From Nemertoderma westbladi (taxonomy: Eukaryota > Animalia > Xenacoelomorpha), in contig JAUCBJ010007471.1 in assembly GCA_032718475.1 (NCBI GenBank), positions 1-33,607 on the forward strand: a stretch of DNA of 33,607 nt. Reading direction: 5' to 3'. The position numbers were made by a program, and so were the translations under genes. Positions 5,871 through 33,607 of this stretch are shown piece by piece (position 1 is the first letter of the stretch; each line of letters opens with the position of its first letter). The notes under the pieces were generated by a model, which saw nothing but the letters and a program-made list of their open reading frames with translations, ran no database searches and was not told where the DNA came from.

Positions 5871-5975
5871 TTATCCCTAATAGTACCGGGCTATAAAATG
5901 TTGTACAAATACCGGGGGTGTGGTGGGGGGTGGGGGGGGGGGGGGGGGTGGGGTGGTCATATTGACCCTCCCCCA
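5871..5975. mobile_element. Left terminus fragment of the same TTAA-MITE family
   Basis: TTAT-CCCTAATAGTACCGGG...poly-G...GGTCATATTGACCCTCCCC, sharing the GGTCATATTGACC palindrome with ~4058-4070. Confidence 0.45.
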
Positions 5976-6009
5976 TCTAAAACCTACAAACTATTTTTGG
6001 AAAATATGT

Positions 6010-7990: not shown

Positions 7991-8744
7991 AAGTTTTTCA
8001 AGTTCAAAATTTATATCAGACAGAAGTTTGTAGATGCTGGAACCGGATTATAAATTTGTGTTGTCCATAAAGAGGATTGGCTTTGAGAATAGTGAAAAAC
8101 GTGTTATATCATTGTAGTAGACAATAAATAACAGTAAACAACAGTAAATAACCTAGTAGTAGTACTGTAGTCAAATTATGGTTGCTTTTCATTGACCATA
8201 TCAATAATTTTGGAACAGAGTGGAATGAGATAAATAAAGGGAATGTTGATAAAGTAAAATATTTCAGGCATGGGTATAACTTCGGTACCATATGTAACCG
8301 TTATAACACAACAAGTTTCGCTCTCAGTATACCAAAATTTTCCAAAACTAATATTCAACATGTGGCAATTTGTTTCTAAAATAATGATATTGTTCTAGAA
8401 TGGTAGCTATTTTTCTAAAACATGTCAGTTTTAATTTAGCAGCGCTCCCATGGCAACAGTAATTATATTCCAGAATTTTAGGACACATTTAGAATTGTAA
8501 GACCAGTAGCTATCGTTTTCAGAAGACGCAAATAATTTATATTGAGTTCTTAGACTACTGCGGCATATTTGTTTATTTTGCCATTTCCATGATAACCGGT
8601 GATAACACGAAGTCAGCTACTGATTCAGGTTATCATATCAAAATGAACGGCTAAAACATAGGTCTTCCCAAAAATATAAGTTCCATATGGTTACCAAAAA
8701 GTATCCCGTATGCTGGCTGGCCCATGGACTATAATACAAGTCAT

Positions 8745-9468
8745 TTATGTTGGCAGGCACATTACCTTATAGTCCCTGAATGCTGGTATTCTACCAGGCA
8801 TAGGTAACCCACATCGGTCAGCTGTAGTTGTATGTACTTAACAACATCGTGAATAAGTTCTACGCTGTTCACTACTCTCTATCTCTTTGACGACTTTCCT
8901 TTGTTGCCATACCCATACACACACACACACACACACACACGGGTAATCACATCATTGGTTTTGAAGTGTTCCACTATATTTTTGAATCTCTTGATTAGTA
9001 TGCATATTAGTAGTTAGCATATTAGATAGTATGCAGAAATAGAAATGTGGATTTACATAGGAGAAAGCCTCTGAAAATATATTGTCGCTGTCGACTTTTA
9101 CTTGTTGCATCATCATGATGAAGCCCTTTATCAACTGACAAGTACTTTGCATCCCACTTTTCTCTAATACACTAGCTATGTGCCTCCAGTTTACTCAACA
9201 CAGAAAGGTTATATTCATCCTTCGTTAATGATAGGTACTGTTCTCTTACTTCTGCAATGTATGACTTACCCAGTAGTTCCGAACATGGGGTATTATTTTG
9301 GCCATATGAACACTTACAAGTCTTACAATAGAATTCATCAACCAATGACTGTTCTTCATTGTCTTCAGCTGATTTCTGTAACTTGTTACCATCTTCAGAT
9401 GTCATTATCAGACCCATGATTTCCCACATCAATCTCATTGATATCAATATTAACATCTCCCACATCAT
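8745..9468 (-). pseudogene. Decayed DNA-transposon-associated ORF fragment (Sola-like/DUF7869-type protein suspected)
   Basis: Minus-strand pieces CKCSYG..PCSELL..VREQYLSL..E.NLSVLSKL and GNKGK...DVVKYI...CGLPMPGRIPAFRDYKVMCLP resemble the N-terminal part of such proteins; interrupted. Family call is from memory only. Confidence 0.4.
8917..8940. repeat. (AC)12 microsatellite
   Basis: Directly visible. Confidence 0.95.
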
Positions 9469-9559
9469 CTTCTGATCTTCATCTTCTGACAGGTCAGGTC
9501 AGGTATTCTAGGTCATTGATCAAGAAAACTTGCCACCTTCATACAGCATAAAGGAGGTT

Positions 9560-12108
9560 CCACCTGTAGCTGCATAGACCCTCTTACTAGGGCAAATCTG
9601 GTCCTGTAACTAGGACCCCCTTTGTTCTGGGATAAGGACGCAATTGGTCCTGGATTAAGGACCCATATACTTGGCTGCAGGGTTATATGGCCTGGCCAGG
9701 CAGATGGTGATCTACCAATGGCTGGTCAGGAGTAGAGTGTTCTCATGTCCATTTTGAGTGCACTTCACTGCGACCTGCACCTGGCAGCAGGGGTACAGGG
9801 CATAACCCAGCAGATGAGCTGCACAGCCAATGGTGGGTCATATGCGCGAGAGTAGATATGGGTGATGGGCCTCATATCTGACTCCACTGCGAGACCCACC
9901 CTGTGGAATGGCAAACCAGGGTGTGGTATTTGCCCCGAGAGCTGACTCGGCAATAAAGCACCCCCCAACCCCCACTATGGATTACATTAGTAATGCGGAG
10001 GTCCAGCCACTAGAGGCCAGTGGAATGACTGGACACAATCGGCCTCACAGGCGTCAGTTATCTCCTGACCGGCTGCCTGTCTCACCCCCTACTGGAGAGA
10101 GAGCGGCAAACAATTCTTAGAGTCCCTTGCCTGATAACCTTTCTGGCCCAAACCATGGGTCACCAGGGAGGCCAGATTGGGGGGAGAGGGATTCTGGAGT
10201 TGGAGGCTACTCTCATGTTCCATCCTGACCAACAAAGCCATTGGTGAATCTGAGGCAAGTCACTAGACTAGCCTCAGTAAACACCCTAACACTCGGGTCC
10301 CCAATGCGACAAGGTGAGCTGACTGCCTTGGCAGATAAGCTTTCTCTTAGTGCAGTGGGTGTTCAAGAGCACCGAATGCAGACTGGACAGACTCATGAGG
10401 TTCTGATTAAGGACATGGGGGGTGGTTGGCGACTCGCCCTCACTTCAGCAGATGATAGTGGCAATGGTGGAATTGGTCTATTGACAAATCCAACTGCACA
10501 TGCAGCATTGGTCAAAATAGACCAAATCTCTAACCGCATCATCCATTGCCATTTCTCATGTTCTGGAAGACTGGCTAAGAAGTTTCCTAAGGTGGTTCTG
10601 ATTGTGTGCTACTCTCCAACTAGTGTTGCCCCTTTAGAGGATGTGGAAAATTTCTACCAGAATCTACAAGCAGCTACTGATGGAGTGGATCGGCATGCAT
10701 TCTTAACATTCCTGGGAGACTTTAATGCAAGTCTGCATCAATCACCTACATCGCCCTGGGTCTATAGCAATAGTGTTAACCGAAATTCCATCCATCTTCA
10801 GGATTTTATCTCTGGAAATGGATTGTTTTCGGCTGGAACCCAGTTCAAGAAGCGAACTGGAAAGCTATGGACTCATAGTGGACCCAGTGGTCACAAGTCC
10901 CAGATAGACCATATCCTGTTTCGTAGGAAATACAGGAGCTCTATACAAGACTGTAATGCATTTACACTACGACCCTTCTCCAGTGATCACCGCCTTATTG
11001 TGGCCAAGGTAAGACTTAGTCTGCGTGCTAGCAGAACAATGAAATCTGCCTTGCCGCAGCATGGCTGGTCCTCTCTGTTGCAACAGCCAAGTGTGAGATC
11101 CAGCTTCACACTACAGCTGAGCAACATGTATGAGGCTCTTGCCTCTGAGGCGGCAGATCACTGTGAGGGCTATACTGCCTTCACAGAGGCAGTTAAGCTA
11201 GCAGCTGCAGAAACAGTTCCTGTATACCCTCGAAACAGGAAACAGGCCCCCTGGACTGACAAACAAAATTCAGAAGTGCCGAAATGACCTCTACAAGGCG
11301 CAGAAAGAGTCCCAACTCAAACAGACTACAGCGGCCAAGAATGCAGTTAAGGCTGCATCTAGGTCCCTGAACAGGCAGTACTCTGTTAATTTACAGGAGC
11401 TAATAAACCAACAGGATGATGCCATCAATAATGCTGACGACAGCAGGCATCATCCCAGGCATGGAGATCGATCAACTTGCTTGCTGGTCGAAAAAGCCAA
11501 CCAACCACCAGCCGATCGCCTCAATGGTTGGAAGGCCCACTTTGAAAAGCTCTTCAATAATGACAGGGTATTGCCTGATAACTTTATAGAAGTAAAAGTG
11601 TCTGAGTCTGTACTCCCAGATATTCCCATTGGTGATATCTCCTCTGCAGAAGTGAAGGCTGCTACAAAGAGCATTAAGACCAATCGTGCCAGTGGAGTAG
11701 ATGTGTTCCCCCTGAGGTCTTTAAAATACCTGAGTTTTTAAAGCTCATCTATCCCATCATAGTAGACATGTACCGTACAACAAGAGTCCCACAAGAAATG
11801 AAAACAAATAAGTTGGTGCCAGTTCCCAAGAAGGGCAACCTAACACTCTATGGTTCTTTTCGGGGAATTTCATTGATCTCGATTGCTGCAAAGCTATACA
11901 ATATAATTATATTAAATCGCATCAGGGATCCTATTGAGAGACTGCTCCGTGGAAATCAGAATGGGTTCCGTAAAGGTCGTGGGACCATGGAGCCCATTTT
12001 GGCACTTAGAAGGATAATTGAAGAGTTATCAAAAAAGAAAGACAGGCATCTGGCTGTTATCTTTGTTGACTTCTTCAAGGCCTTTGATTCAGTCTCTCGA
12101 TCACGTAT
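9560..12108 (+). mobile_element. RTE-clade LINE, 5' part (UTR, APE endonuclease, start of RT), 3'-truncated at the LTR boundary
   Basis: APE motifs VNTL, VGVQEHR, CYSPT, LGDFNA, WTH, QIDHIL, SDHRLI (10241-11287); RT motifs VPVPKKG..FRGISL.SIAAKLYN, QNGFRKGR, FVDFFKAFDSV (11768-12108). The ORF probably starts at ATG 9977 (in frame, two stops); frameshifts near 11280, 11460 and 11710. The 5' boundary is approximate. Confidence 0.88.
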
Positions 12109-13338
12109 TGTTCGCGCTTTTGAAGACCTTTAGCAGTTTAACCTGCCAAAATTTATATGTCTTCTAGTTAATTAAAACACCTTTAGCATACGACAATATT
12201 TTATGCTAATACACAAAACATTACCCGAAGTCAGCCCATGCGCGATCATTCACCCGATGGATCTACACCCGGGAGGCTGAATTCGGCTGCTTAAATTGTA
12301 TTATTGCAGTGTAAGGTTGCAGTGTATACCTACTGTATTATTCGATAGATCGTTAATAATTAATCTCTGACAGATATTATTGGCTTTCGGGAAATATTAA
12401 CAGTTCCTTTAGGACGTGGCGCTTTATCTATTTAAACAGAACTAAGACTTATACTAAAACGCAACGATACTGCTTATGATTAAAGTATAAAGCGTATTCT
12501 TTAGGAAATACTTTGTTACCAATCGCAATCATACACACTATTCTGCCGACCGTCAGTATATTTGATCATACATAAAGAGAGCAGCAATTGACTCACGTAG
12601 GGTCTGCTAAATAACATTGGATTCAATACACACCACATTAATATAAATCGCAATTGTTATGTATAGCCGGTCTCTCTAACCTGTAGTGTATCAAGAAAAT
12701 TGGGAATTTGGGTGATTTATCCGTATTATCCAAAGAGCAATATTTCCATCAACAAATAGGTACAATTAATAACTGACGGTAAAATAACAGTACAAACAAT
12801 ATGATTAATAGTGAGTTATTGAGATATTTTAAGATTTGTTAAGTTAGGTAACAGTTTATACTTTCGATAATTCAAGCAGTTTACTATAGTTCTTACCAAA
12901 AGGCCGGTGTTTCTGGCTTAGACAGCAATAACAACAAAGTATCAAGTAAGAGCAGTAAGACTGAACACTCTCCTTATGATCGGCCGAAAAGCTACACGTC
13001 GACAGGAAAAATCGCTCTGATTGGCTCAAGCCAAACAAAGAACCATGCGTCCAATGGCTGTTTCCATGTCAGCAACCAGCTGTTAGATGTCGTAATATGA
13101 ATCATCACGGCTAAGCTGTGAAAGGTAGTTGGTGCATTACAGGTTTTTTGCCTTACCATGTCCGCCAAAACACGTATATAGCAGAATGATTTTTATGTCC
13201 GTTAAAACACCTGTAAAGGTACCTTGCGGGCGAGGGGAATATATATACAGTTAGAGAACCCTTTTAGAGTATTCCAGCGCCTGGGGGGAACTGGCCAGCA
13301 AAGGCAAACGTATCAGTTATCCCACAAAAGCTTTTACA
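12109..13338 (-). repeat. 3' LTR (1230 bp)
   Basis: Plus strand TGTTCGCGCTTTTGAAGACC...GCTTTTACA, aligns along its length with 26770-28017. Confidence 0.95.
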
Positions 13339-13347
13339 CCGCTCCCA
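13339..13347 (-). other. Polypurine tract (plus-strand primer)
   Basis: Minus strand TGGGAGCGG directly precedes the TGTAAAAGC start of the 3' LTR; similar to the short G-rich PPTs of BEL/Pao elements. Confidence 0.7.
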
Positions 13348-13416
13348 GAAAATGGGATTTAAGTCTATAAAATATACAAAATCACAGTTTCTAAAATATA
13401 AAAATACTCTAAACAG

Positions 13417-14864
13417 TTAGTCTTTCTTGCGCGGACGGCGTTTACGCAGTTTTTTAAAGCTAGCAAGAGTCCTTTTCTCTTTGGGGCGAGCCACTTTACG
13501 AGGAGGGCTATAACTCCTGGGTGAAGGGTGCAATATGATTGCATCAGAAGGTATGGGATTGCGATCGGTATATCCGCCGGTCGAAGTACCGGGTTGATTG
13601 ACCTCAACGTCCGGGGAGAGGGGTCTAACGGCTTTGAGAGCTCGTTTCAAGACAGCCGCTCTTACGGGTCCTTTACGAGTGGTCTGAACGAGGGCCGTGG
13701 GTGGACCATAGGCAGTTAGAAACTTCCTTGGTTTAATGGTTCTTTCCAACTCGCGTTCGCGGGCTCTGTACTCGTAAGGCCGTCGATATACTTCCTGTAA
13801 CTCAGGGTGTGAGTTGACAAATAAGTCTCCATAGGCCGGATCTTGACGGATAAAGTTTATTAAGTTATACGAATTGATGTCACTCGGATTAATGCTCCTG
13901 AGGAATTTGCGTACATATTTGGTTGAAATACATTCTCCAACGCGCTTCAATAGTTCATAACTTGATAGGCGCGATTTCTGCTCGACGGAGGCAAACAAAT
14001 ATGGATGGAACGCATAAACTCCTTCGTAGGCGCGTCCAGGATAATAGCGATGGCGTGAATCACAATATAAATCAGTGTTCGCTCCCAAGCTCTGATGTAA
14101 CGTAGTGTGATCATTTCATCTACGCTTTCCAAATCGTGATTAAAAGGGCAATCGAAACTGGCGTGTCCTTTTAATTGACAATGATGGCATTGAGTCATAA
14201 ATTGGGGGCAGACAGCAAAAATGTGCAAATTATTAAGCCGACAATATGCACAATAGATTTCCATCGACGGTTGCTCGTGGAAATAGGAACAGATATCGTT
14301 GGTGTCCATAGACGTAATATGGTCTCTCGATGCGCACAGCCGACAACGTTGTCGAGAAACATAGTTGGCATGGCGATAATCGTACGCAGTGAGACACTGT
14401 GGACCTTGATACCCTTCTAGGATGTAATCGTTGTCGATATTCCGAGCGCGATAGGCTGAATCTCCTCAGATTCTAGACATATTGGTTCGTCTTCCCAGTC
14501 TGTTACGAATATAATTTTCGTGATCTATTCTCGGTTTATCGATACGACGCCGCTGGGTATGATATTTAAATAGAACCATTTCCCTTTCGGTGTCTACATC
14601 GTCCGTATCATGTAAATCGATAGGATGGCCGGTAGTTAAGAAGTCCATATACGTACCATTACGATGCGTATAGCGAGCGGTTAATTTTCGATAGTCCAAT
14701 TCACGCGTAAGTTGCTCTTGGGACATCGGCGGTTCGATATAACGACCATCGTCCTCCGTAATAGTCGGATCGGCTTCACCGCGCATCAAGCTATCCACAA
14801 ACGCTTGTAAAGGTAGAGTATATCACTCTCTAATACCAAGGTCATCTTCTATCAATTCTGTCAT
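13417..14864 (-). pseudogene. Extra ORF in env position: CCHC zinc-knuckle protein with basic C-terminus, ~480 codons, two in-frame TGA and one frameshift
   Basis: ATG 14864 (MTELIEDDLGIRE*), TGA 14825-14823, ORF 14798-14466, TGA 14468-14466, in-frame continuation through 14309-13947; switch to the 14088-13417 frame near 14115-14080. Motifs CRLC-x4-H-x9-C, CAYC-x5-H-x4-C, CHHC-x4-H-x4-C; ends KKLRKRRPRKKD. Confidence 0.75.
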
Positions 14865-16480: not shown

Positions 16481-18090
16481 TCACGTTTGGGAGTCCCTAG
16501 ATGTTTGAGGTATTAGGGAGGTGGTCGTGGGAAGAGTGTCTTGTCTTCCATAGTTTCCGGAGAGTTCTCTGTCTCTTTCCAGCAAACATAAACGACCAAC
16601 TGGGCGATTGAGTTGTTGCGTCTCAAAGATTATTCCGGGTTTCTTGAAGTTACGCCTCATTACGACGAGTTCTACTGAGCGCACTAGACCATCCTCCGAG
16701 ATGTGCGTCTCGATGATACGACCGATCTGCCACCGTCTACGTGGGAGGTCCGGATCTACAATAAGGACCATGTCTCCGGCGCTGACATTTTCCTGCTGCG
16801 CAAACCACTTAGTTCGAAGTTGTAGCGTGGGCAGATAATGTTTCTCAAAATGGTCAGCGAAACGACGGGATAGCAACTGCATAAGCTGCCAAGTTCGACG
16901 ACAGTATTCATCTCCATCGGCAATCTCGGATTTTGGGAGCATGGCTACAGGTTTCTTAAGTAGGAAATGCGCGGGTGTTAGCGCTTCCAGGGAGTCGATA
17001 CTCGATGAGACTGGCATAAGCGGTCTCTCGTTAAGATAGGCAGCGATTTCTTCCATTAACGTCCGTAGAAGTTCGTCGGTGAGATATGCGCGGCACGGCA
17101 CGATAAAGTGAAATGCGGTCTTGACACTTCGAATCAATCTCTCCCAACTTCCTCCCCACCAAGGGGCGTCGGCGGCGTTAAAGGTCCAGCTAGACGCCGT
17201 TATCCGTAGCTGGTCATCCACCTGTCTTTGATTCCAGTCCTTTACGTAAGCCTGGATTTCGTTGTTGGCACCAATGAAGTTCGTTCCCTTGTCGGATCTC
17301 ATCGTATTGCTAGTGCCGAAACGAGCGATCTGTCGTCGTAGACATAAGACGAAGCTGTTAGTAGATAGATCGTTCACCATATCGAGATGGATAGCTCTAC
17401 AAGTCATGCAGACAAAGATTACACACCATCTCTTGATTATAGTTCTAGCACGATATACTTCAATAGGGCCAAATAAATCCACACCAGTATTAGTAAAGGG
17501 TGGTTCATAAAAGCTTACTCGTTCCCTAGGTAATTCTGCCTCTCGCTGTGTTAAAGGCCTACTGAATACTTTCCTACAAGGTATGCAGTTCCTAAGAACT
17601 TGATTCAGAGCTCTACGTGGTTTATGAAAATAATAGCGGGTTCGAATCTCGCTAAGAACTCGTTCTCTACCAGCATGATACAGTTTACTGTGAACATCTA
17701 CAATCATCTTGATTTGTACTTCAAGATTACTAATGAGTATAGGGAATTTAGTATCAAAAGATAATGGAGCGTTGGTAAGTCTTCCTCCAACGCGTATTAA
17801 CCCATCTATCATTGTGCTAGAGAAGCGATCCCTTAAGCGCATCTGCGGATTTCTCAACAACAGAAAGTACCTATCGGAATCCTCATAGCATTGCAATAGT
17901 CTCAGTAGCTGCTTATTAGTTTCTTCATGCTCCTGGTAGCTGATCTTCTCCTTTAGAAACCGGTCTGATATCTTGTACTTAGGTAGATCTTTAATAACAT
18001 GAACTTGCGCAGATGTTACCGGAGCAGGATCACTAGTGGTCTTCTTCCTGGAGTAATGATGGTGAAAACATCTCTTTAAGTATGTGATAG
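16481..18090 (-). CDS. BEL/Pao integrase portion of the polyprotein (frameshift-separated)
   Basis: DGLIRVGGRL, HHCC (H..LYHAG...CIPC), DDE motifs TGVDLFGP, SDKGTNF, GGSWERL, LTPAHFLL, C-terminal W..GRI...DGLVRSV. The frame is open from ~18090 (AITYLKRCF...) into the 17896 ORF. Confidence 0.95.
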
Positions 18091-21000
18091 CTTTGTGAGA
18101 CGATTCCAGGAACTGTAATGATGCAGTGCTCTCTGCAGCAGGGGTGAGATTCCTTGCGAGACGTCTGGTATCTCAGATTTCCAATTTCTATTTCTAATTT
18201 CCACAACAGATTTGTTTGTGGCGAGGGATTGTGGATCCGAAGTATCGTTCTCGGCAGTATGTAATACAGATAGGTCGATTGTCGGTTTAAATAACTTCGA
18301 TTTACTTGTCCGAATTTTGGGTTTGACTTTCTCCGCTCCCTTGGCTTGTCTAATCTCAGCCGTAGTAAGGTGAGGAGGCCATTCATCCTCTTCCTTGCTC
18401 AAGAAGTCGGGTCCACCCAACCAGTCAGGGGTATCTATCAGTTCCTGTGGAGTTGCTCCTCTGGAGGCGATGTCAGCTGGGTTAATCGTACCAGGGCAAT
18501 GTCTCCATTGATCTATCGTTGTGCGACTAAGAATAATGGCCACTCTGTTAGTAACAAAGACGCTGAACTGACAGACTTCATTCGTTATATATTCCAATAC
18601 AAGTAAAGCGTCGGTCCAATAAACAGTTTTCTCCAGTGGATAATCGATCTGTTCTGTTACATTCCGTCCGATAGCGGTAGCGTATAATGCTGCCTTTAAC
18701 TCCGCCCGAGGAACCTTAAGCTTGTTGTTAATCAATGCCTTAGAGGTAACCAAGGCAACTTTGATTCCATCCGGAGTTTCGACTCGCAGGTATGCTACTA
18801 TACCGATTCCCATATCGCTGGCATCTCCAAATACATGGAGTTGATAGGAATACGTAGGGAGAACATGACCAAAATACGAACGGGAAATTATAAAGTTCTC
18901 GATGGCAGGTAGCGAATCCTCCCATTTCATCCATTTCTTTAATAGTTCTCCCTTGAGTGGATCGTCCCACGAGTGGTTTTCTAGCCACATTTGTTGTACT
19001 AAACTCCGAGCAATCAATATAACTGGGCTAATAAATCCCAAGGGATCGAAATAAGTGCTCAGAATACTTAAACAAATCCGTTTGGACCGAACTGGATTAT
19101 CTCGCTGTTTTAACTGAAAAAACAGGATGTCTCTTTCTGTGTCCCACTTCAAGCCAAGTGTCTTGGTTTCCGGAAGATCATCATGTATTAAGTCGAGATC
19201 TTTTGCTCCCCGGTCTTCTACAGATATTGCTTCCAGAAACTCACGGGAGTTGCTGGTGAACTTCGTCAACCGAAATCCACCTCTTTTCAAACACTCAACC
19301 GTTCCTTTCGCGACATCAATGGCTTCCTTTACTGATGGAAGGGACTTTAGATTGTCGTCCATGTATATGTCTCGTTTGATGTTATCTATCACCTCTTTGG
19401 AGAAGGCATCCCGGTTGTCATCCGCAGTAGTACGGACCACTGAGCAGGCGTTTGAAGGGCTTGATATAATCCCAAAAGCCTGGATGGTCATCCAGTACTC
19501 TACTGGTGTCTGGTTGAGATCTCCTTCAGGCCACCACAGGAATCTTAGGCTGTCTCTATCACGATCCAACGCCTTGACTTGTAGGAACATTCCTTCTATA
19601 TCGGAGGCGAACGCGATGGAATATTGTCTTAATCTCAACAGTATCCCCAACAAAGATTGGAGCAAGTTGGGTCCTGGTAACAACTCGGAATTAAGGGATT
19701 GGCCCATATATAGGGCGGAGCCATCAAATACGACCCGTACTTCATGGGGTTTACCGGGTTTGGGAACATAATGATGTGTTAGATAATAAGTCCTTTCAGT
19801 TATTGGAGTTCCTTCCGGTACTCGCTCCGCATATCCCTTTGTGATAAATTTCTTCAACTGAGTTTGGTACATTTCCTTAGCTGAAGCGTTTGCCGTAAGA
19901 CGTCGATGTAATTGATTGATTCTTTTCTCAGCCAAGGGTCTGTTATTTATAAATCTGGGTTCACGTTTTCGGAAGGGTAGTCCGATTTCGTATCTACCTT
20001 GATCTTTTAAAAAACGTGTAGTTGTTTCCTGGATTTGCTTGGCTCTTTCTTCTTCTATTGACAGGGCTTTGTCGTATGAATTGGGTTCTACCAATTCTTG
20101 GGTAAAGAATCGTACGGCGAGTTCGTCCCGAGTTCTAGCGTTGTAGCGCTCTACCTCGTCATTAAGTTCGTCATTATAAATAATGGATTCCGTTAGGCGA
20201 ATCAGTTGACATAGATTCATTTGGTTTTTCCAAGTTTGGTTTTCGGTAAGTAGGTCAATTGTGTTCTCTTCTTCGAAGAGTTGGTAGATGTCGTCATTAT
20301 CCGAGGAGTATGGTGTTCCCTCAGTTAGTTCGTCCACTTCGCTGTTTTCCTCTTCCCAATCACTTACCTGATCTATTTGTTCGTGTGGCATTCTCTCTTC
20401 TAGAGTTCTACGGGAAGGGCCAGTAAAGTACCAACCTACTCTAGTTCTTACCGCATAAGTTTGCAGTGGCTGTGGTTGAGCAGGCCGTTTCTCTAATGTT
20501 TCGAGCGCCTCGTGCGCGTTTTGGCCGATAAGTATTTGCACTCCAGGATAATCTGTCTGGAATCGAGGTATCTTAAGATGTTGGACGCTCTCATCTTCGT
20601 CCCAATTATAAAGGTCTGCTTGAGTAGTAGCAAAGTTCTTTATAGCCACCATTTTTACTGACCTTACACCTTGTGTTCCTAACTTATCCTGGGGGGTGGA
20701 CAACACACCTACATAGTAATCTGCCGTCAGGGTAGATTTCCAAACCTGCATAATTCCTGACATATTCAATTTAGTCCGGAACTTGGGTTGTCCAGCAAAG
20801 ATATCTTCGGCTAGCTCTTGATCTATGAATGTTCCTGTGCTGCCTGAGTTCAGTAGGGCGTTCACTATGTAGCTTTTGTTAATACCATGAACTCTTACCT
20901 GAACTACAGGAAATTCTCTGATTCCTACATTGGAAGTTGGAGCTTTCCAAGATGATTGTTTGGCAAAAGTTGTAGGGGGGAACTCCTCGTTGATATCCTT

Positions 21001-24000
21001 TTCGTAAGTAAGTGCTCGATACACCGTGGTGTTTATTAGATAACAGGATTCATTTACGTCGGAGAATTCGTCAGTATAAAATCCTTCCATCTCAGACTCC
21101 TGATCAGTGTCGTTTACATCACTGAATTGGACATGTAGTTCGGACTCACTTACCTGACTCGGCTTGTCTCGTTCGAACTCACTATGTAACAAGATGTGAT
21201 GTTTCGCACCACACTTTTCACACTTTATGTCGGAGTAACAGGTTCGCCGTTGGTGTCCTGGTCTGAGGCAATTATAACATAACCGCTTGTCCCACACAAC
21301 TGTACGTCTGTCTACAAGGGATTTCTTTAGAAATTCCGCACACGCACTCAAACGGTGGGTCCCGTCACACAGCGCACAGTTAGGTTTTATGTTACTCACT
21401 TTACCCTGTGTAGTCTGATGCACTCTCGTTCTTTCTTCGGGCTTTCTTCCGCGCATTCTGTTAGGAGACTGAGGAGGGGTCTTAGTAACTTGTTCTCTCC
21501 TATTATTGGTTCGAGCTTTGTATTTACTTACGTCCTTGGAGGTTTTGTCAACATAATACGATCTATCGGTATCTTTCCCGCTGTCCTCTTCTTGGGAAGC
21601 TTGGCTTTCGCCGTCGTCAGTGTAACACACCGGTGTTACTCTTCTCCTAGAAGTGGGTTTCTCACTTACCTTATTTTCCGATGTTTTCTCTCTGGACTGC
21701 TTGATGAGTTGTAATTTGACTTCACCATCTAAGAAAGACATGAGATCAGCCATGGTTGGACTTCGTCGTTGTTGTTCATTCATGTACAACACTTTCTTGT
21801 CCCAGCGTGTACATACTCCACCCTTTGGTAAAGTAGAGACTACGGCTCCAATAACCATGGAACTCTGGTATTCGTGCGACTTACCTAACCAGTCCAGTTG
21901 TCTACAGATCTCTTGAATTTCATCGGAAAACTCTATAATCCCACTACTAAGGAAGTGTCGGGGGGCTACTAATTTTGTATACAAATACTTAGCTATGTTA
22001 TCTTTGTTACCATACCTGATGTTTAATGTATCCCAAACTTGTCTTAATCCTTCTGGATGTCCAATAAACTTTAACGCCATTAACTTGGGAGGTCCTTCCA
22101 AGCACTTGATGAGGAATCTAAGTTTCTCTCCGTTAGATAGTACAGAGTTCTGTATGCTATCTTTGTAATATTCGTTGAAAGGTAACCATTTCATCTCATC
22201 TCCATTGAATTTGACGATCTCTCCCACTTTGACCGCTTGGCGGGCTTCTGTTCTTGCCATCTGACGCGTAAAGCTTTCTTGGGCCATCGTGTTATTTAAT
22301 ATCGAATTATCGGTATACAAATTTCTCGGATCATTATCAGGTCTATAGGGAATATCATTAATAACAGGTCTATAATCACCCTTAATAGGGTTTGCTATAG
22401 GAGTTTCAACTTCACTAGCAGTATAGATGCGTGTAGGCTCCACACCTTGCGCATGTAATACTTCAGACCTAACGGGTTGACACAATGTTACAGGGGGCAT
22501 TGGTATGCCTTTTTGTATATTGACTAATTTGTCGCGTTCTAGCGCGATACTTTGCTGCACTTCTTGCAACTCTGCTCTACCTTCCCTCACTGTTCCCTTA
22601 AGTTGGTGGACAGTCTCCTGCATCTGTCCTAGCAGGAGATTCATCCCCCGCCGTCCCTCTTCCACCCACTCAACCGCCGAAGCGGGAGTCGCCAACATAG
22701 TAGCGGGCTGACGCGGGACGACGGGAGACAAATTATTGATTTCTCTCTCTGCTATCTGGACAGGGGTATTTGCATGGACTGTTCCACCGGGTACAGGCAG
22801 TGTAGTGCTATGTAAAGGGAATTTAGAGTTAAGCTCTGGAAGTGTAGGGGTCTCTAGCACAGAAGTGACTTTGGGAATTACAGGCCTAATTATTTCAGGT
22901 TCATCGACTATAGTAGGGAGTCTTTTGACCTGGATAAATTGTTCTATGGGTTCTGCACTACCTAAATCTGTGCTAGTTAGCTGTCTTTTAACAGCTGGGG
23001 GCAAATCAGGCAATTTACGACGGTAATATGTTTTTCTACGCCTACTTAGATGAGATCTATCTCCTCCGCCTTCAGGGTCGGTAGTATCGCCTTCCTCCGA
23101 TGATGTGTACCCCTGGCGCTTGGGAGTAGATTTTCTCATCATCTGCATTTGATTAGCAGTAAACTGTTTAGTTATACTGTCTTGTGTCTCTTGCAGATTC
23201 TCCAACTCCAGTTGGGTAGTCTGCTCAGATGCTCTCCTTTCTGCTGCTGCCATTGCCTTTGCTGCTTTTCTTTCAGCTTCTACTTCTGCCGCCGCTGTCT
23301 TTCTTTCTGCTGCTGCATCTGCTATAGCCTCCGCCATAGCCGCCGTTTTTTGTTCCTCTATCCTTCTTTTCTTTATTTGTTCTTCTTGGACTCTAGTGAG
23401 GCGGAGTTTTTCATCACATTCAGCTTGGTTTGCAGCTAACATTTCGGCGTCGATTGAGTCCAACACAAGCTTGGTTCCTTCACTATTAGGGGAAAGTCCA
23501 GACAGCCGTCTCCTCAACTCTTCGTCTCCTAGGAATCGCTGATAGTCGGACAAATAAATGTCGATAGCGTCTCTAGTTCGCGGTTTCTCGGCGGCCTCTT
23601 CGCTTTTCGCTTGAGCAAGGGTGACATCATTTGGTTCTTCATAGGTTGATCTCTCAGCCAGCTGGGATTTCCACGGGGCTGTTTCCTGTACTTTAAGATC
23701 TACCCGATGTAGCCAAGTTTTGACAGCAACCTGCAGCGACGTGTCCTGTCTTCTTTTGGAAGTTTCCTCAAAGGCTGAGAGGATTAGTCGAATGCGTAGG
23801 GTTCTTTCGCGTATTTGATATAGCAGTTCTTCCTGCTCTTGAGGTCCGTGAGGTTGTCGAAACAGTTGTTCTTCCAATCGCTCCAAGGATCCGAAGAATC
23901 CCTGCACATATCCTGCTGCCGACCTCTTCCAAACAGCTGGATCCATTGTATCTTTAGCCACTCCCATCCTGTGTATATCTTCCCAAGTAGCCTCGGACAT

Positions 24001-24519
24001 ATCCAACGGAAGTCCGAGTCCGGGAAAGTTCCATTGTGATTCAACAATAGATATCAATTCTTCCCTGGCGTATCCTGCGTAATTGTCTTGGGTCGCTCGC
24101 TTATTCTTCGCCCAGTCGGCTTGATGTTCCTCCACCGCAATGAATATAGTAGTTAGCACTGCAGCAGGAAGAGTAAGAAGGGGGTCCGAGTAGACTGTAT
24201 CAGCCATCTGCACTCCATGTTCGGGAGTCAACTCTACAGTATCCGAACTGCTGGAGCTATCGGGTCGCTGGGAAGTAGGTTCTTGACCAAGATGTTGCTG
24301 CGATAAGACAGCTGCCTCTTGGTCCCGTTTTACCTGTGCCCGAGTGCCTATGATGGACCTATGGTGGACTAGCCTAGGGTCTGATACTACTGGAGGGATG
24401 ACCTTTTTTACAGTAGGAGGTGAGCCGAACTCCTTTCTTATTTGCTCCACACTCCTATCTGAATCACAGATAGTTGTATCGATCAGACTGTCTGACAGGT
24501 TTTGCTGAGTGTCAGACAT
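18076..24519 (-). CDS. BEL/Pao gag-protease-RT-RNase H polyprotein (2147 aa up to frameshift)
   Basis: FNGDEMKWLPF gag core (DUF1759-like); knuckles CALC..H..C, CYNC..H..C, CEKC..HH.LLH; protease ALLNSGS; RT RVVFDGS, SDIEGMFLQV, YMDD (19365-19354); RNase H HVFGDAS, PRAEL, WTDA, NPADIASRG. Confidence 0.97.
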   Translation of the reverse strand: MSDTQQNLSDSLIDTTICDSDRSVEQIRKEFGSPPTVKKVIPPVVSDPRLVHHRSIIGTRAQVKRDQEAAVLSQQHLGQEPTSQRPDSSSSSDTVELTPEHGVQMADTVYSDPLLTLPAAVLTTIFIAVEEHQADWAKNKRATQDNYAGYAREELISIVESQWNFPGLGLPLDMSEATWEDIHRMGVAKDTMDPAVWKRSAAGYVQGFFGSLERLEEQLFRQPHGPQEQEELLYQIRERTLRIRLILSAFEETSKRRQDTSLQVAVKTWLHRVDLKVQETAPWKSQLAERSTYEEPNDVTLAQAKSEEAAEKPRTRDAIDIYLSDYQRFLGDEELRRRLSGLSPNSEGTKLVLDSIDAEMLAANQAECDEKLRLTRVQEEQIKKRRIEEQKTAAMAEAIADAAAERKTAAAEVEAERKAAKAMAAAERRASEQTTQLELENLQETQDSITKQFTANQMQMMRKSTPKRQGYTSSEEGDTTDPEGGGDRSHLSRRRKTYYRRKLPDLPPAVKRQLTSTDLGSAEPIEQFIQVKRLPTIVDEPEIIRPVIPKVTSVLETPTLPELNSKFPLHSTTLPVPGGTVHANTPVQIAEREINNLSPVVPRQPATMLATPASAVEWVEEGRRGMNLLLGQMQETVHQLKGTVREGRAELQEVQQSIALERDKLVNIQKGIPMPPVTLCQPVRSEVLHAQGVEPTRIYTASEVETPIANPIKGDYRPVINDIPYRPDNDPRNLYTDNSILNNTMAQESFTRQMARTEARQAVKVGEIVKFNGDEMKWLPFNEYYKDSIQNSVLSNGEKLRFLIKCLEGPPKLMALKFIGHPEGLRQVWDTLNIRYGNKDNIAKYLYTKLVAPRHFLSSGIIEFSDEIQEICRQLDWLGKSHEYQSSMVIGAVVSTLPKGGVCTRWDKKVLYMNEQQRRSPTMADLMSFLDGEVKLQLIKQSREKTSENKVSEKPTSRRRVTPVCYTDDGESQASQEEDSGKDTDRSYYVDKTSKDVSKYKARTNNRREQVTKTPPQSPNRMRGRKPEERTRVHQTTQGKVSNIKPNCALCDGTHRLSACAEFLKKSLVDRRTVVWDKRLCYNCLRPGHQRRTCYSDIKCEKCGAKHHILLHSEFERDKPSQVSESELHVQFSDVNDTDQESEMEGFYTDEFSDVNESCYLINTTVYRALTYEKDINEEFPPTTFAKQSSWKAPTSNVGIREFPVVQVRVHGINKSYIVNALLNSGSTGTFIDQELAEDIFAGQPKFRTKLNMSGIMQVWKSTLTADYYVGVLSTPQDKLGTQGVRSVKMVAIKNFATTQADLYNWDEDESVQHLKIPRFQTDYPGVQILIGQNAHEALETLEKRPAQPQPLQTYAVRTRVGWYFTGPSRRTLEERMPHEQIDQVSDWEEENSEVDELTEGTPYSSDNDDIYQLFEEENTIDLLTENQTWKNQMNLCQLIRLTESIIYNDELNDEVERYNARTRDELAVRFFTQELVEPNSYDKALSIEEERAKQIQETTTRFLKDQGRYEIGLPFRKREPRFINNRPLAEKRINQLHRRLTANASAKEMYQTQLKKFITKGYAERVPEGTPITERTYYLTHHYVPKPGKPHEVRVVFDGSALYMGQSLNSELLPGPNLLQSLLGILLRLRQYSIAFASDIEGMFLQVKALDRDRDSLRFLWWPEGDLNQTPVEYWMTIQAFGIISSPSNACSVVRTTADDNRDAFSKEVIDNIKRDIYMDDNLKSLPSVKEAIDVAKGTVECLKRGGFRLTKFTSNSREFLEAISVEDRGAKDLDLIHDDLPETKTLGLKWDTERDILFFQLKQRDNPVRSKRICLSILSTYFDPLGFISPVILIARSLVQQMWLENHSWDDPLKGELLKKWMKWEDSLPAIENFIISRSYFGHVLPTYSYQLHVFGDASDMGIGIVAYLRVETPDGIKVALVTSKALINNKLKVPRAELKAALYATAIGRNVTEQIDYPLEKTVYWTDALLVLEYITNEVCQFSVFVTNRVAIILSRTTIDQWRHCPGTINPADIASRGATPQELIDTPDWLGGPDFLSKEEDEWPPHLTTAEIRQAKGAEKVKPKIRTSKSKLFKPTIDLSVLHTAENDTSDPQSLATNKSVVEIRNRNWKSEIPDVSQGISPLLQRALHHYSSWNRLTKLSHT

Positions 24520-24607
24520 GTTTAGTTATACAGTTGAATATCTACTACTATAGTTTCAGTTAAAGCAAGTCTAGTAATTCAGTATGATCGCAAGCCTAGC
24601 GATTTAT

Positions 24608-24897
24608 TACCGGTACCGTTAATCGGTGTAACGTGATATATACACAATATATTAGAATACCGGTATGCTTATAATATATAAATATTATTACAGACTAGAT
24701 TTGTCACAGAGTACCGGTATATAATTTTAGCACAAATATATATATATATATAGTAGGCCTATAATGAATACCGGTATACAGCTTACACTTACAGCATGTA
24801 AGTATAGTTATGAACTAAAATTAATGACAGAGTACCGGTATGATTTCAGCTCAAATTTATAGAGATAAATATAATAAGCCTATGGTAAATACCGGTA
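24608..24897. repeat. Phased array of six TACCGGTA palindromes within a degenerate ~115-120 bp dimeric repeat in the 5' UTR
   Basis: TACCGGTA at 24608, 24658, 24712, 24769, 24833, 24890. Confidence 0.85.
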
Positions 24898-25869
24898 TGT
24901 CAATTATCAATTATTTTAGAATAATTGAATTTCTGAATATTTTAGGGTTACTTAGTTACTTTAACTTACTTTATTACCGTTATTTAAGCAGTAGTCCAAC
25001 TGATATTGAGACCTAGTTGTTGTCTGGCAGGCCTACTATTTATAAATCGTTTGAGTTGATTTATAATATTTATATACCCGTTTAAAATGGGTTTTGTCAA
25101 TATTTGAAATAAATGTTATTATTTCTGGGGGTCACTACACGGAAGCTGTGCACTCTCAGTGAAGTGCTATTTATTTGACACTAAAACTGATAATTCTAAT
25201 TTACCTAAGTTACTTAATACTACAAATTACTTACGATATTGGTGAGATTAATTCTCTAATTAAAACACAACAAAAATATGACGTACGAAATTTTTAGGGT
25301 AATTTTACAGGAAGTCTACAACCAGCCTAACAAAGGGTTAGATTTCTGGTTATTACAACAGACAGGGTACTACGGTATTTGAAAATAATAAGTAGTAGTA
25401 AATATATTGCACTGTCCAGATAGGAAAATACCACCGCCTGACGACCTATAACCGTATCGCTATAGGTACTACGTTATGTATCACGGATTGTTCCTACCCA
25501 GAAGCCAATAGAGCTAACGAATGTGCCTATCAACCACTTTACAACACAAATATACTGCCTACACTAATTACTTCGGAAAGCACTGTACACTAAACCCTAA
25601 ATTAGGTACAAGTACCGGTATAACAAATAATCAGTAGTTAAATATACTTGAACAGTTAAAAGAACCACGGCATCTGCTGGAGTGACCGAAGCACAAAGTC
25701 GTCAGTCTTTACCTACGCCAAGCAGCCCTGATGTAGTACCGGGGTTAGTTTAACTATAACGGTATGTATAACAAGCACAATTACTGTAGGAATAAACTTG
25801 GGGACATGAATGTTGCGAATAATCGCATAAACTCTGAATAATAAATATTACGCTACCCGTACAGAATAC

Positions 25870-26415
25870 TCAAACAAAATACAAACTAAACGCTGGCAGA
25901 CTACTATCAAGCCTAAACAAACTACAGTATGTGCAGATTCTGAAACTGTTAGTTAGTATGCGTTCTAACACGGTAGTACGACTTACTCTTTAAGAGGGGA
26001 TTGACCTTACCGCTTATGGCTGCCCCAACTTACTAACGGCACTTGATCAGACCAACTCTACACACGCAGCAATCCCTTCAGACCTAAAAATAGCTAGACA
26101 ACAATCCAGCCTACAAATATTTGAGTAATAACTATTACGGTACCTGAACAGACCACACAAACAAACACAGGCTAAAACACTGGCAGACTACGATCAAGCC
26201 TAAATAAACTACAGTATATGCAGACTCTGAAACTGTTAGTTAGTATGCGTTCTAACACGGTAGTACGACTTATTCTTTAAGAGGGGATTGACCTTACCGC
26301 ATATGGCTGCCCCAACTTACTAACGGCACTTTATCAGACAAACTCTACACACGCCGTAATCTCTCCAAACTCAACAACAGTCAGACAGCAGCTCAGCCTA
26401 CAATTATTTGAACAA
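25870..26415. repeat. Tandem duplication, 287 bp period, in the retrotransposon 5' UTR
   Basis: CTGGCAGACTAC at 25893 and 26180, with a near-identical ~175 bp core following each. Confidence 0.93.
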
Positions 26416-26758
26416 TCTGAGCAGACTTACACGTCTTCAGCTCAATATTAACTTACTAGGAAATAAAACCGACAGAAATAAGTAAGCTCCAAAAGAAACA
26501 AGGGGTGTACAGTCCCTAATCTCTTAAACAGCCTACCGGTATACAATGATCAAAATCGAATAATACTAAATGTACTTGTACAGCAGTACCGGTACCGGTG
26601 ATGACAGTTAGGCCTACTGACCTACAAAAGCACCGGTTCAGTTTTACCAGTCACTACGGTATTTTGCAACCTTATTGCCTACTGCAATAAGATTATAAAC
26701 TGTTACTGTTCGCCAGAACAGTATTAAACTGTATTTAATACCTACACTGCAATACAAG

Positions 26759-26769
26759 TAAACTGTTAC
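26759..26769 (-). other. Candidate non-tRNA primer-binding site GTAACAGTTTA
   Basis: Abuts the CA end of the 5' LTR, lacks TGG, and is the exact reverse complement of LTR positions 27523-27533. Confidence 0.5.
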
Positions 26770-28017
26770 TGTTCGCGCTTTTGAAGACCTTTAGCAGTTT
26801 AACCTGCCAAAATTTATATGTCTTTCAGTTAATTAAAACCACTTTAGCATACGACAATATTTTATGCTAATACGCAAAACACTAGCCGAAGTCAGCCCAT
26901 GCGCGATCATTCACCCGATGGATCTACACCCGGGAGACTGAATTCGGATGCTTAAATTTTATTATTGCAGTGTAAGGTTGCAGTGTATACCTACTGTATT
27001 ATTCGATAGATCGTTAATAATTAATCTCTGACAGATATTATTGGCTTTCGGGAAATATTAACAGTTCCTTTAGGACGTGGCGCTTTATCTATTTAAACAG
27101 AACTAAGACTTATACTAAAACGCAACGATACTGCTTATGATTGAAGCATAAAGCGTATTCTTTAGGAAATACTTTGTTACCAATCACAATCATACACACT
27201 ATTCTGCCGACCGTCAGTATATTTGATCACACATAAAGAGAGCAGTAATTGACTCACGTAGGGTCTGCTAAATAACATTGGATTCAATACACACCACATT
27301 AATATAAATCGCAATTGTTATGTATAGCCGGTCTCTCTAACCTGTAGTGTATCAAGAAAATTGGGAATTTGGGTGATTTATCCGTATTATCCAAAGAGCA
27401 ATATTTCCATCAACAAATAGGTACAATTAATAACTGACGGTAAATAACAGTACAAACAATATGATTAATGCAATTAAATTAAGTGAGCATGTTAATTAGT
27501 GAGATTAGTTAGGTTTGTTAAGGTAACAGTTTATACTTTCGATAATTTAAGCAGTTTTACTAGAGTTCTTCCCAAAAGGCCGGTGTTTCTGGCTTAGACA
27601 GCAATAACAACAAAGTATCAAGTAAAAGCAGTAAGACTGAACACTCTCCTTATGATCGGCTGAAAAGCTACACGTCGACAGGAAAAATCGCTCTGATTGG
27701 CTCAAGCCAAACAAAGAACCATGCGTCCAATGGCTGTTTCCATGTCAGCAACCAGCTGTTAGATGTCGTAATATGAATCATCACGGCTAAGCTGTGAAAG
27801 GTAGTTGGTGCATTACAGGTTTTTTGCCTTACCATGTCCGCCAAAACACGTATATAGCAGAATTACTTTTATGTCCGTTAAAACACCTGTAACGGTACCT
27901 TGCGGGCGAGGGGAATATATATACAGTTAGAGAACCTTTTTAGAGTATTCTAGCGCCTGGGGGGAAACTGGATTGCGAAGCAAAAGGGGCCAGTTATATC
28001 CCACAGAAGCTTTTACA
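26770..28017 (-). repeat. 5' LTR (1248 bp)
   Basis: Aligns with 12109-13338; TG...CA termini; CCAAT box (AGCCAATCAG on minus, ~27694-27703). Confidence 0.95.
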
Positions 28018-30299: not shown

Positions 30300-32830
30300 T
30301 CTGAAGTTGCTATTACATCATCGTAATCTGTAACATGATCGATCATCTGTACTGTCAATGTCCGAGTCGAAATAACTTTCAGGTTTCATGACGTTCATCT
30401 TGGCAGTGTTGATGTCTCTCACAGTCGGTATGAAGGTCTTTCTCACGTCATTCAACTGCCGGTGAACTCCATTTACAACGACCACCCAATCATATACTTC
30501 CTCCACTGGAACTGGTCCTTTCCACTTGTACATCGAATATGACTATCTTGTTTAACATAAACCATATCACCGACTTTGAGGGAGTGGGGATGCTCCACCT
30601 GGCCCCTGGGTTCTCTGCCATCCCATTGTTTTACAGTATTAACCTCAGTGACCCCTGGGAGTTTATTCCCACGTTCTGCAACACCTTTAAAACACAGCTC
30701 AGTTGGAGTAAAGTTCCTGTCACATCCTATTGTCCTACTGAACCAGAATGCTGCTTGTTCTACCGTTTTTCGAGCTCTGACTGCCCATTTCTTAATACGG
30801 TAGTTCAGTGTACTTTTTCTACAGGGTTTATTTTCTCTACAGGCACATACAAATAACAGAGTAACTTCCAAAGTGTCAATAAATTCTTTCAGTTCCTGAC
30901 TCCAAAATGCCGGTAAGTGGTCCACAAGAACTTCATCAGGAGGGCCCATTTCGAGAAATATTTGGTTAAGTTCACACTGTTGACGCATTTTCATTGGCAA
31001 ATTTCGTCTGCATATTTTCTAATGTGATGCATAATCCATTACAGTTAAATACTTTCGATTGCCATACTCAGTAAACTCCATGGAGAGATGGCTCCACACC
31101 TGGTCAACTTTTGCTGTTCAACCTTCCACTTTAGTGGGATTGGATCTTTACTACTGTTACATTTTGGCCACTGATATACCAACTTTTTCAATGAGCCTTA
31201 TAAAGTAGGAGTTGATTCCTTCCTTTCGCAGTCAAGGTGTCAGAGTTATGATGTTCTTTCAACTCCTAGATTGGAAATTTTGTGGATCTTATTCTTTACT
31301 CTCCTTAATTGATCATTAAAATCTTTCATTATCTATCATTAAAATCATCATCTACCATGTCACAATTTTGAGGAACTGTAGTGAGGGCATCAGCCTTATT
31401 AATATCAGACTGTACTAGAAATGGATGGATTATTAGTTGATATTGCTCGATATGGTTGGCTATTAAATCTAATCTCGGTTCAACTAATTTATGGGCCTGC
31501 CCTTAGTTCTTACACTATGAGAGTTGGATACAACTGCTTCTGCCCAATATGAGCAGTGATTGAGTTGATAAACAGGTCGATTTCAACCAATCCCCATCAA
31601 TCGCGAGATTAATACCACCCACAACAGGATCCAATTATGCTACATTAATATGGCTTTTGTCACTTTGTTTACATAACCAGCTAGTGTCTTCAACTATGAT
31701 TTCATCAAACACTGCCAATACTTCCTTGGCAATTGAGGTAAACATCAGTCCAGACTTCTCCCGATTTATTTGGTGGTACCAACCATGTTCCTGTCGCTGG
31801 ATCATTATTACTAGACTGTTCTATCGTTTGGACAATCATTTCTCATTCAATCATTCATTTAGATAGTATTGGTTCAACAGGTGCATCCCACACCCTTCAT
31901 GCACCGTATCACTGCATCCAAAGGCACATGCTGGTATTAGCCATCCAGCGATTGGAAAATGACCACGAAGTGCATCACATATTGAATGCACTTCCCACAT
32001 TGTAATACAATTTGGCAATGATGGTAATTTTGAATCCTGTTTCCACCTTAAAATGGTGTACATGTACGGAAGTGATACCCATACTTGTTCATCAACTGAC
32101 AGTGTTTTCTCCACAATGTGGTTCATGATTTTAGGCACTGAACTTAGTACAAATCCCATCACTGTTACCAAATATCGTACATTTTCATACACCACTGTTT
32201 GATATGGTTGAGTTCTTTAGCGATCATTATTTGCATATGGGGCCATTTAAGGTCTATTAGTGCTGTATGGATGCTTTACGTGGAACACACACACACAGTG
32301 GCTCCCAATAGTCTAAAATGGGGCGTATTCAATTTTTCTTTGGCTCGTATTTCCCCATTAGAGGAATAGTTCTCTTTTTTTTACCATGTTCAAAATCGTT
32401 ATATAGAATCATCCAACCTTGTGTTCGCCATCCATCAATACTAAAACGGAACATTTCTTGATGTTCTGGCCGAATAGTATTAGTATATTATATTATATAT
32501 ATTATATTATTATATATTCTATCATATAGGCGTTATAGTATTCTGGTGCATTGGTTCTTGATTTTGCTTCCATTTCCATTCGGCAGTCCAACTCTCACCA
32601 TTATAAAATGCATTAAAATCCACGGCATTCAGCGTCACTTCAATGCCAATGCTTCCAGTTATGCCAATGTTACACTGTTTAATTAGTTTAGGTCCCAAAA
32701 CCTGTTCTGGACTATTCACCTCCACACCAAGTTTTTTATGAGAATTGACTGCATCCATTGCTCCAAATATTGTTGATATTGAATTTGCTGGGTCAATCGA
32801 TTTAATTAATCTTCTCGTCATCGCCTGATA
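30300..32830 (-). pseudogene. Highly degenerate Gypsy-like LTR retrotransposon pol (RT, RNase H and integrase remnants)
   Basis: Fragments WTAEWKWK, RYLVTVMGFVLSSVPKIM (RT), GPPDEVLVD..FWSQELKEF (integrase core), VGDMVYVK..WKGP..VNGVHR (integrase C-terminus), in RT-then-IN order; many frameshifts. Confidence 0.75.
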
Positions 32831-33607
32831 ACGTCATGTGCAGCCCCTGATAAGGAAAGTGACGTCGGGTAAGCGATGTTTCTTCCTTTAACTTTGACTC
32901 TGCCTTTATACACCCCCAATGTCGAATGTCTAATAAACCGAATGTTTGTCGGATAGTCCAACATATTACTATAGCAACATTTCCATCGTGCCAAAAGGGC
33001 GACTTTTGGGGATCATTTGTATCGTATTGAAAGGAAATTTAAAATAGTTGACCCACAGTAGAAATTCCGGTTAATTTAAACTGGAAATTTCATATAGCCA
33101 GAGCTCAGCTATTATGTATTATATGATAGCTAGTACAGAGTTACTCACCATGTGATTATCCAATTCGTTAATGTGGACTAGTCCATGGATATAGGGAGCA
33201 GTTTCTTTGAGCAAGTCCATACAGTAATCCACAGCTACAGATGATACTGGTGAGTTGGTGGGAAACACAGACTTTGTTGAATGAGATCCGTTATGCAGGT
33301 AATTCCATTGGTAACACCAACTGTACATTATGTACAGAAGTGAAAGCAGCAGAACCCCAGTCGGAGTGTACTAAAATAATATAAAAGTAAAAATGTATTC
33401 CGTATGGCGTCATTTTCACTAGTATTACATGCAGCCAATTCTGTTCTCACAGATTTAATAATCACATAGTGTATGTAATCAAGTCAGGTCAGGGTCCCCA
33501 GATCCTGCTACCACTATGGAAGTAATGTGGTACTACCTGTAGCTGTCTGCCCAGTAGGACAGCTTGATCAGCACCAGTAGCCTACAGTATTCATCATTTA
33601 GTCAATC

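Follow-up and report, generated by a model that had tools for sequence, protein, structure and literature searches.

The BEL/Pao retrotransposon on the minus strand of the window, the 33,607-nt stretch of Nemertoderma westbladi DNA analyzed here, probably starts reverse transcription with its own RNA, as judged from the letters of its long terminal repeat (LTR) and primer-binding site (PBS). The LTR self-complement on which this reading is based is real, is not a product of chance, and is common to a branch of BEL/Pao. As a predicted trait, self-priming is not peculiar to this element and is widespread in this part of BEL/Pao.

The features of the element are given in Table 1. Assignment to BEL/Pao was supported by Pao-type gag-pol domains in the order PR-RT-RH-IN (DUF1759, Peptidase_A17, Integrase_H2C2 and DUF5641; PF03564, PF05380, PF17921 and PF18701) and by TG..CA LTRs together with a polypurine tract; purine-rich words similar to the latter also preceded the 3' LTR in relatives. 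Similarity search returned 544 homologues at E<=0.001. The 120 matches listed were BEL/Pao polyproteins about 40% identical to the window element, all possessing PF05380, and the named nearest proteins among them were from sea cucumber, fish, sea urchin, coral and mussel. The gag region (22200-24519, minus strand) had about 770 aa ahead of DUF1759, including a coiled-coil-like stretch, and was longer than in most relatives, whose polyproteins are about 2000 aa including the integrase. The leader (24520-26769, minus strand) was 2.25 kb long and contained a 287-nt tandem duplication at 25835-26416 as well as many GTACCGGTA-like palindromic words. In the broken extra ORF between pol and the 3' LTR, a zf-CCHC_3 match had an E value of 0.0071, below the curated cut-off, and the ORF was not env-like by Pfam.

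Table 1. Features of the BEL/Pao element and of its predicted priming region (window positions)
Feature	Positions	Strand	Basis or remarks
Whole element		minus	15.9-kb LTR retrotransposon, BEL/Pao
5' LTR	28017-26770	minus	1248 nt, TG..CA; alignment with 3' LTR
3' LTR	13338-12109	minus	1230 nt, TG..CA; alignment with 5' LTR
Polypurine-tract-like stretch	13339-13350	minus	abuts 3' LTR
gag-pol ORF, 2147 aa	18076-24519	minus	DUF1759, zinc knuckles, RT, Pao peptidase/RNase H region
Integrase part of pol, other frame	16481-18172	minus	Integrase_H2C2, DUF5641
Broken extra ORF between pol and 3' LTR	13417-14822	minus	three CCHC-like zinc knuckles, basic C-terminus
PBS-position 11-mer (copy 1)	26759-26769	minus	flush with LTR end; pairs with 27533-27523
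Second PBS copy (copy 2)	26694-26706	minus	13-nt perfect complement of 27535-27523
Predicted self-primer 3' end	27523-27535	minus	complementarity; putative cut after 27523
Predicted promoter	27635-27731	minus	reverse CCAAT 27731, CCAAT 27700, initiator-like TCAGTC 27640-27635
U5 arms pairing with leader	26962-27007	minus	complementary blocks, predicted fold
U5-leader stem	26974-26963 with 26754-26743		12 nt
U5-leader stem	26971-26962 with 26690-26681		10 nt
U5-leader stem	26982-26973 with 26674-26665		10 nt
U5-leader stem	27007-26996 with 26566-26555		12 nt
Leader with partner arms of U5-leader stems	26555-26754	minus	

The window copy is probably not autonomous, since pol changes frame near 18076-18172 and its protease motif looks degenerate. 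Alignment of the 5' with the 3' LTR gave 1186 matches, 40 mismatches and 32 gap columns. The differences, indels included, cluster within the first 50 nt and immediately 3' of the 11-mer. The flanks of the two LTRs differed and no target-site duplication, a BEL/Pao feature, was present. Two LINE fragments were observed on the plus strand, at 10229-12133 and at 5884-7049 (endonuclease and start of RT). The former is cut by the 3' LTR and had no continuation beyond the 5' LTR, so the locus has probably been rearranged and, given that no target-site duplication was present, the two LTRs may stem from separate insertions.

The 5' LTR was followed without a gap by GTAACAGTTTA (26769-26759), and no TGG, by whose presence at or near the LTR end a tRNA-type PBS was judged, was found there. 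As the sequence-only reading had noticed, this 11-mer is the exact reverse complement of 27533-27523 in the 5' LTR and of 12858-12848 in the 3' LTR; the 3-bp extension over a 2-nt bulge that it described is also real, giving 14 pairs and -14.1 kcal/mol. When the LTR was shuffled by dinucleotides, a match of at least 11 nt occurred at offset 0 in 20 of 20,000 shuffles and at offsets 0-4 in 75 of 20,000. The chance of such a match is thus 1e-3 to 4e-3, somewhat higher than the 3e-4 put on it in the sequence-only reading. A further unit had been missed: 63 nt downstream, the terminal 7 nt of the LTR occur again together with the 11-mer (26776-26759 = 26713-26696, 18 identical nt), so that copy 2 of the PBS is preceded by a copy of the LTR's terminal letters (26713-26707). 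Copy 2 pairs over 13 nt with -15.7 kcal/mol, and its 13-nt partner is also present in the 3' LTR at 12860-12848. The site of the family, judged from the sister contigs described below, seems to measure 13 nt and not 11 nt. The distance between partner segment and PBS was 753 nt, and neither a tRNA gene nor an Rfam match was detected in the region (ARAGORN, Rfam).

Sister copies were sought in public sequencing runs. Six runs from four studies matched the stretch, and four of them, one per study, were examined as short contigs; the best-matching run may be the source of the window DNA itself. The family was highly repeated, 12,997 contigs matching in run X1. Depth at the copy-1 junction (26755-26759) was 8,000-10,500 versus 339,000 at 26695 in X1, and 5,500-7,700 versus 105,000 at copy 2 in X3, i.e. 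about 3% and 5-7%, respectively, of that at copy 2, summed contig depth not being copy number; the low depth marks the copy-1 junction of the window as a minority form. Contigs of X4 and X5 ran from the LTR end and the 11-mer directly into letters matching 26693-26681 (the 13-nt form), and contigs joining copy 2 to the LTR end numbered 16 in X1 and 13 in X3. These sequences indicate that the common form of the family has the LTR end directly followed by the 13-nt site. Across the family, the number of tandem LTR-end-plus-PBS units (26707-26776) varied from one to two or more, and contigs of X5 indicated three or more.

This arrangement leaves room for a variant that is compatible with self-priming and that we consider possible, if doubtful, namely that the functional site of the window copy is copy 2 of the PBS, with its 13 nt. 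Under this variant, the 5' LTR would extend to 26707 as a long form, the 11-mer would be a vestige inside U5, and the tandem LTR-end-plus-PBS units would be the outcome of mis-paired second strand transfer. In agreement with it, the terminal letters of the LTR stand in front of copy 2, which also has the stronger pairing, the copy-1 junction has the low relative depth given above, three or more units are indicated in X5, and the clustered LTR indels with the missing target-site duplication mean that a single insertion is not required. However, the 3' LTR of the window ends at the short form, no loose end displayed, 47 rows being excepted, had 3' flanks at 26707, and the depth comparison is subject to the difference between contig depth and copy number.

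The sister copies also bear on the idea that the match arose by chance in a decayed copy whose tRNA PBS had been lost or displaced, to the TGG at 26715-26713. This copy is indeed damaged, with a frame change in pol and no target-site duplication, and the single-window chance stated above applies to a scan of many windows. In two runs, 74% and 79% of depth differed from that TGG, the only one near the site, which is thus a minority allele and was rejected as a displaced tRNA PBS. Sister copies keep the site, mostly without that TGG, and the same trait occurs in relatives, so that chance is largely refuted and must be considered very improbable. Among the well-agreeing loose ends displayed, 47 rows being excepted, none was TGG-type at the LTR end; two poorly agreeing loose ends of X5 looked like mixed flanks. 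As a point against self-priming, PBS position 1 differed in 31% of depth in X1, 16% in X3, about 60% in X4 and 0% in X5. In X1 the depth that differed was 24% at position 12 and 9% at position 6, only the latter change being G.U-compatible. LTR-partner variants were absent from the 40 variant rows shown of 245, among which compensation for the PBS variants was thus not visible. A in place of G at position 1, matched by T, was found in the related families L050 and L054.

Relatives were collected with a profile of 31 proteins, giving 79 metagenome loci (best 80 of 530 confirmed) and 12 genome-contig loci. The latter (L080-L091) are animal-type BEL/Pao contigs in prokaryotic genome bins, presumably host contamination. 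Both LTR ends were apparently present in 16 loci and clean in 14, where they were fixed by the divergence of the two copies; L042 and L061, whose repeat ends were not clean CA, were left out, and the LTR end of L091 was set from its 5' copy and its sister L014. Thirteen of these 14 loci lacked TGG in the first 8 offsets and had a 10-15 nt pairing with their own LTR. Three of the 13 were contiguous (L050, L076 and L087, with 10, 11 and 11 nt), while in the other ten the pairing, of 11-15 nt, formed only if a GT..AG segment of the LTR was taken to be spliced out; shuffles of their own LTRs reached these scores 0-7 times in 150. The remaining locus, L075, was tRNA-type: a 5-nt spacer precedes its TGG, and it lacks a self-complement, its own-LTR pairings being 5 and 7 nt (equaled in 136 and 76 of 150 shuffles). 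In cross-family controls, at least 10 contiguous nt were reached in 1 of 132 off-diagonal pairs and 11 spliced nt in 3 of 132, two of these three between sister families. All 13 duplexes began 0-4 nt from the LTR end, and GT or AT stood at the start of 12 of them, one more letter being included in the longest match of L082 and of L083. In the relatives examined, the paired segment (exon 2 or the contiguous stretch) lay about 50-210 nt from the LTR end, closer than the 753 nt between partner and PBS in the window element, which counts against self-priming there.

The scan was extended to all 91 loci, many without upstream sequence, with the site required to start with the letters RT and with a donor list widened after the result on the 14 loci had been seen. 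It gave 24 spliced matches, L042 among them, and 12 contiguous ones, versus 1 and 5 of 182 cross pairs. Counted as families by the tree, with L088 and L059 apart, the spliced matches represent about 17 families and the contiguous ones up to 9, with LTR ends that were not independently fixed in six of the contiguous families. Ten loci were re-read allowing G.U, of which L015, L021 and L022 gave no match and L057 a doubtful one. Between the sisters L082 and L083, two letters differ before a homologous donor together with the two matching PBS letters, which shows two compensatory changes in this one sister pair. The covariation of PBS and LTR partner that the sequence-only reading had looked to was observed across related BEL/Pao families. 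Self-pairing sites lay on most branches of the tree, which was midpoint-rooted without an outgroup and without L017, L059, L088 and L091, and from which no order of events is drawn. The window element was on a long branch (1.20), its nearest placed neighbors including L075 (tRNA-type) and L068, which also speaks against self-priming; none of the loci collected was a close relative whose PBS could be read, and no relative was found in viral contigs by protein or by the 18-nt motif.

These families also bear on the proposal that the primer is a host RNA other than a tRNA 3' end, such as a tRNA half, a small RNA or a mitochondrial tRNA, the LTR match being incidental or secondary. Half-tRNA primers do exist in Copia lineages, according to the part of PMC6317226 that was consulted. 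Nevertheless, the PBS letters differ among the approximately 17 spliced and up to 9 contiguous families and each matches its own LTR, so no single host RNA would explain them, and the region had no Rfam match or tRNA gene. We regard a primer of this kind as quite improbable.

The window's family is of the contiguous type, whereas most related families pair only across an LTR splice junction. AG precedes the 13-mer of the window, and no upstream donor lengthened the pairing. A splice-dependent primer was rejected for both copies: for copy 1 the best junction gave 10 nt (reached in 14 of 150 shuffles), less than the contiguous 11, and for copy 2 the apparent 14 consisted of the contiguous 13 plus one letter at the first base of the LTR. 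In L016, L018 and L019, the partners of contiguous type likewise include or follow AG, which may be a trace of intron loss or an acceptor whose donor lies off the contig. A strong donor-like GTGAGT was located at 27257 and could splice to near the start of gag. In a run guessed to be RNA, none of the 11 joints shown had GT..AG ends, and this run was uninformative on splicing or expression.

CCAAT boxes and an initiator-like TCAGTC were found by motif scan in both LTRs about 105 nt upstream of the 11-mer, while the TATA-like word cited in the sequence-only reading was present only in the 3' LTR. Transcription is predicted to start near 27638, so that the motifs do not favor the Tf1-like start at the 11-mer proposed in that reading. 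A start this far upstream is compatible with self-priming, since a primer of about 115 nt could be paired by its 3' end alone; the same holds for the spliced relatives, in which a primer spanning the junction calls for a first exon that extends beyond the 3-9 letters paired. In the proposed mechanism, the transcript begun in the 5' LTR would pair through 27535-27523 with the PBS, presented in a loop by the predicted U5-leader stems. The RNA would then be cleaved directly behind 27523, probably, as in Tf1, by the RNase H of the element, and reverse transcriptase would extend the resulting 3'-OH from the LTR boundary. At strand transfer, the 3' LTR copy would supply the 5' piece that had been cut away. 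In each cycle the PBS would be written anew when the primer is copied during plus-strand synthesis, by which the two sequences would stay complementary.

Four complementary blocks of 10-12 nt between U5 and leader (Table 1), also missed earlier, suggest a structure around the PBS. The 13,431-nt interior had eight separate LTR-complementary blocks of at least 11 nt, four of them within its first 215 nt, and the three blocks downstream of copy 2 were reached by 4 of 3000 shuffles. The predicted fold of 27015-26550 had a z score of -6.9, reached by 0 of 100 shuffles. It speaks against the proposed pairing that the primer-PBS duplex was absent from nested folding of 27660-26540 (pair probability 1e-16 and 6e-11); such folding cannot show both, because the duplex would cross the U5-leader stems as a pseudoknot. 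Opening both strands would cost 9.3-10.8 kcal/mol against duplexes of -14.1 and -15.7 kcal/mol, a thin margin. Eleven relatives had no excess of such stems over cross pairs, by which the stems were ruled out as a group trait.

A structured leader that is rich in further LTR-complementary blocks would also suit a regulatory or packaging structure, i.e. a long-range switch closing on spliced or 5'-proximal RNA, with another primer at work; long-range 5' pairings are common in retroelements. We consider this unlikely, for the duplexes of all 13 loci keep the same place at the LTR end and the same narrow range of length, all but one with the GT or AT start, no alternative primer site remains, and it is the primer-PBS pairing that is conserved while the other U5-leader stems are not.

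Priming from an element's own RNA has been described for Tf1/sushi, Tcn1 and TAR elements, as far as the consulted parts of PMC6317226 and PMC4600332 go. Like the window element, Tf1/Tf2 of Schizosaccharomyces pombe, Tj1 of S. japonicus, and the Tf1/sushi and Tcn1 elements of Ty3/gypsy are presented, in the parts consulted, as having no tRNA PBS and about 11 nt complementary to their own LTR in its stead (PMC7175516, PMC4600332). Structured U5 and leader sequences around the PBS are a further likeness to Tf1-type elements, although in the window they are predicted and are not conserved in relatives. The Tf1/sushi lineage differs in its pol, which is of Ty3/gypsy chromovirus type, whereas the domains of the window element are BEL/Pao. 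In Tf1 the primer consists of the first 11 nt of the RNA; these anneal to the PBS, and RNase H cleaves behind them, between bases 11 and 12 (PMC7175516). In the window, by contrast, the predicted start is upstream of the partner segment, which itself lies far from the PBS. The splice-spanning primer of many BEL/Pao relatives does not figure in the consulted portions of the Tf1 descriptions (PMC7175516, PMC4600332). For the TAR lineage (Houba, Osr-1), self-priming was likewise predicted from complementarity, by the consulted part of PMC6317226, but these are Ty1/copia elements of plants. Fungal GalEa Copia elements and bivalve TRIMs resemble the window element in having no tRNA PBS; the relevant parts of PMC5445492 and PMC6934838 describe a local hairpin, with no LTR complement found for GalEa, while that of the window element lies in the LTR.

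The ICTV account of Belpaoviridae/Semotivirus, in the part consulted, gives an 18-nt PBS for tRNA-Arg or tRNA-Gly, host-tRNA priming and a genome of 4.2-10 kb (PMC8742986). The window element agrees with it in LTRs, PR-RT-RH-IN gag-pol order, polypurine tract and animal host, but at 15.9 kb and with no TGG at the LTR end it departs from it in genome size and PBS. Since 13 of 14 relatives also lack a TGG PBS, that account, as consulted, does not cover this branch. No published description of self-priming in BEL/Pao was found in a search mostly outside subscription journals, Repbase reports and supplements, and a term search of the main text of the Sinbad and BEL/Pao survey papers met no mention of tRNA, PBS or priming.

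Taking the window and its relatives together, we lean towards a joint reading in which a large branch of BEL/Pao from aquatic animals would have dropped tRNA priming, each family using an internal primer from its own LTR transcript. This primer would mostly be built by host splicing of an LTR intron; intron-free families such as that of the window would represent a fused form, and the window's family would amplify LTR-end-plus-PBS modules in tandem. If this branch self-primes, BEL/Pao would join Gypsy (Tf1) and Copia (TAR, predicted) as the third LTR superfamily with the mechanism. Fragments of tRNA target the PBS to control LTR elements. If true, self-primed elements would escape this control, and the splice-built primer of the relatives would tie reverse transcription to the spliceosome. 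Self-priming in BEL/Pao would also bear on whether the mechanism is of ancestral or recurrent origin, an ancestral one having been proposed in the consulted part of PMC3601003. Self-primed elements are probably under-annotated by LTR finders that require a tRNA PBS, and the window's family is a contiguous, high-copy test case.

Elsewhere in the window, decayed retroelement remains with weak matches to an integrase core and DUF7047 were located at 30473-32833 on the minus strand, and a tandem array with units of 164-173 nt and internal inverted repeats occupied 3101-3745.
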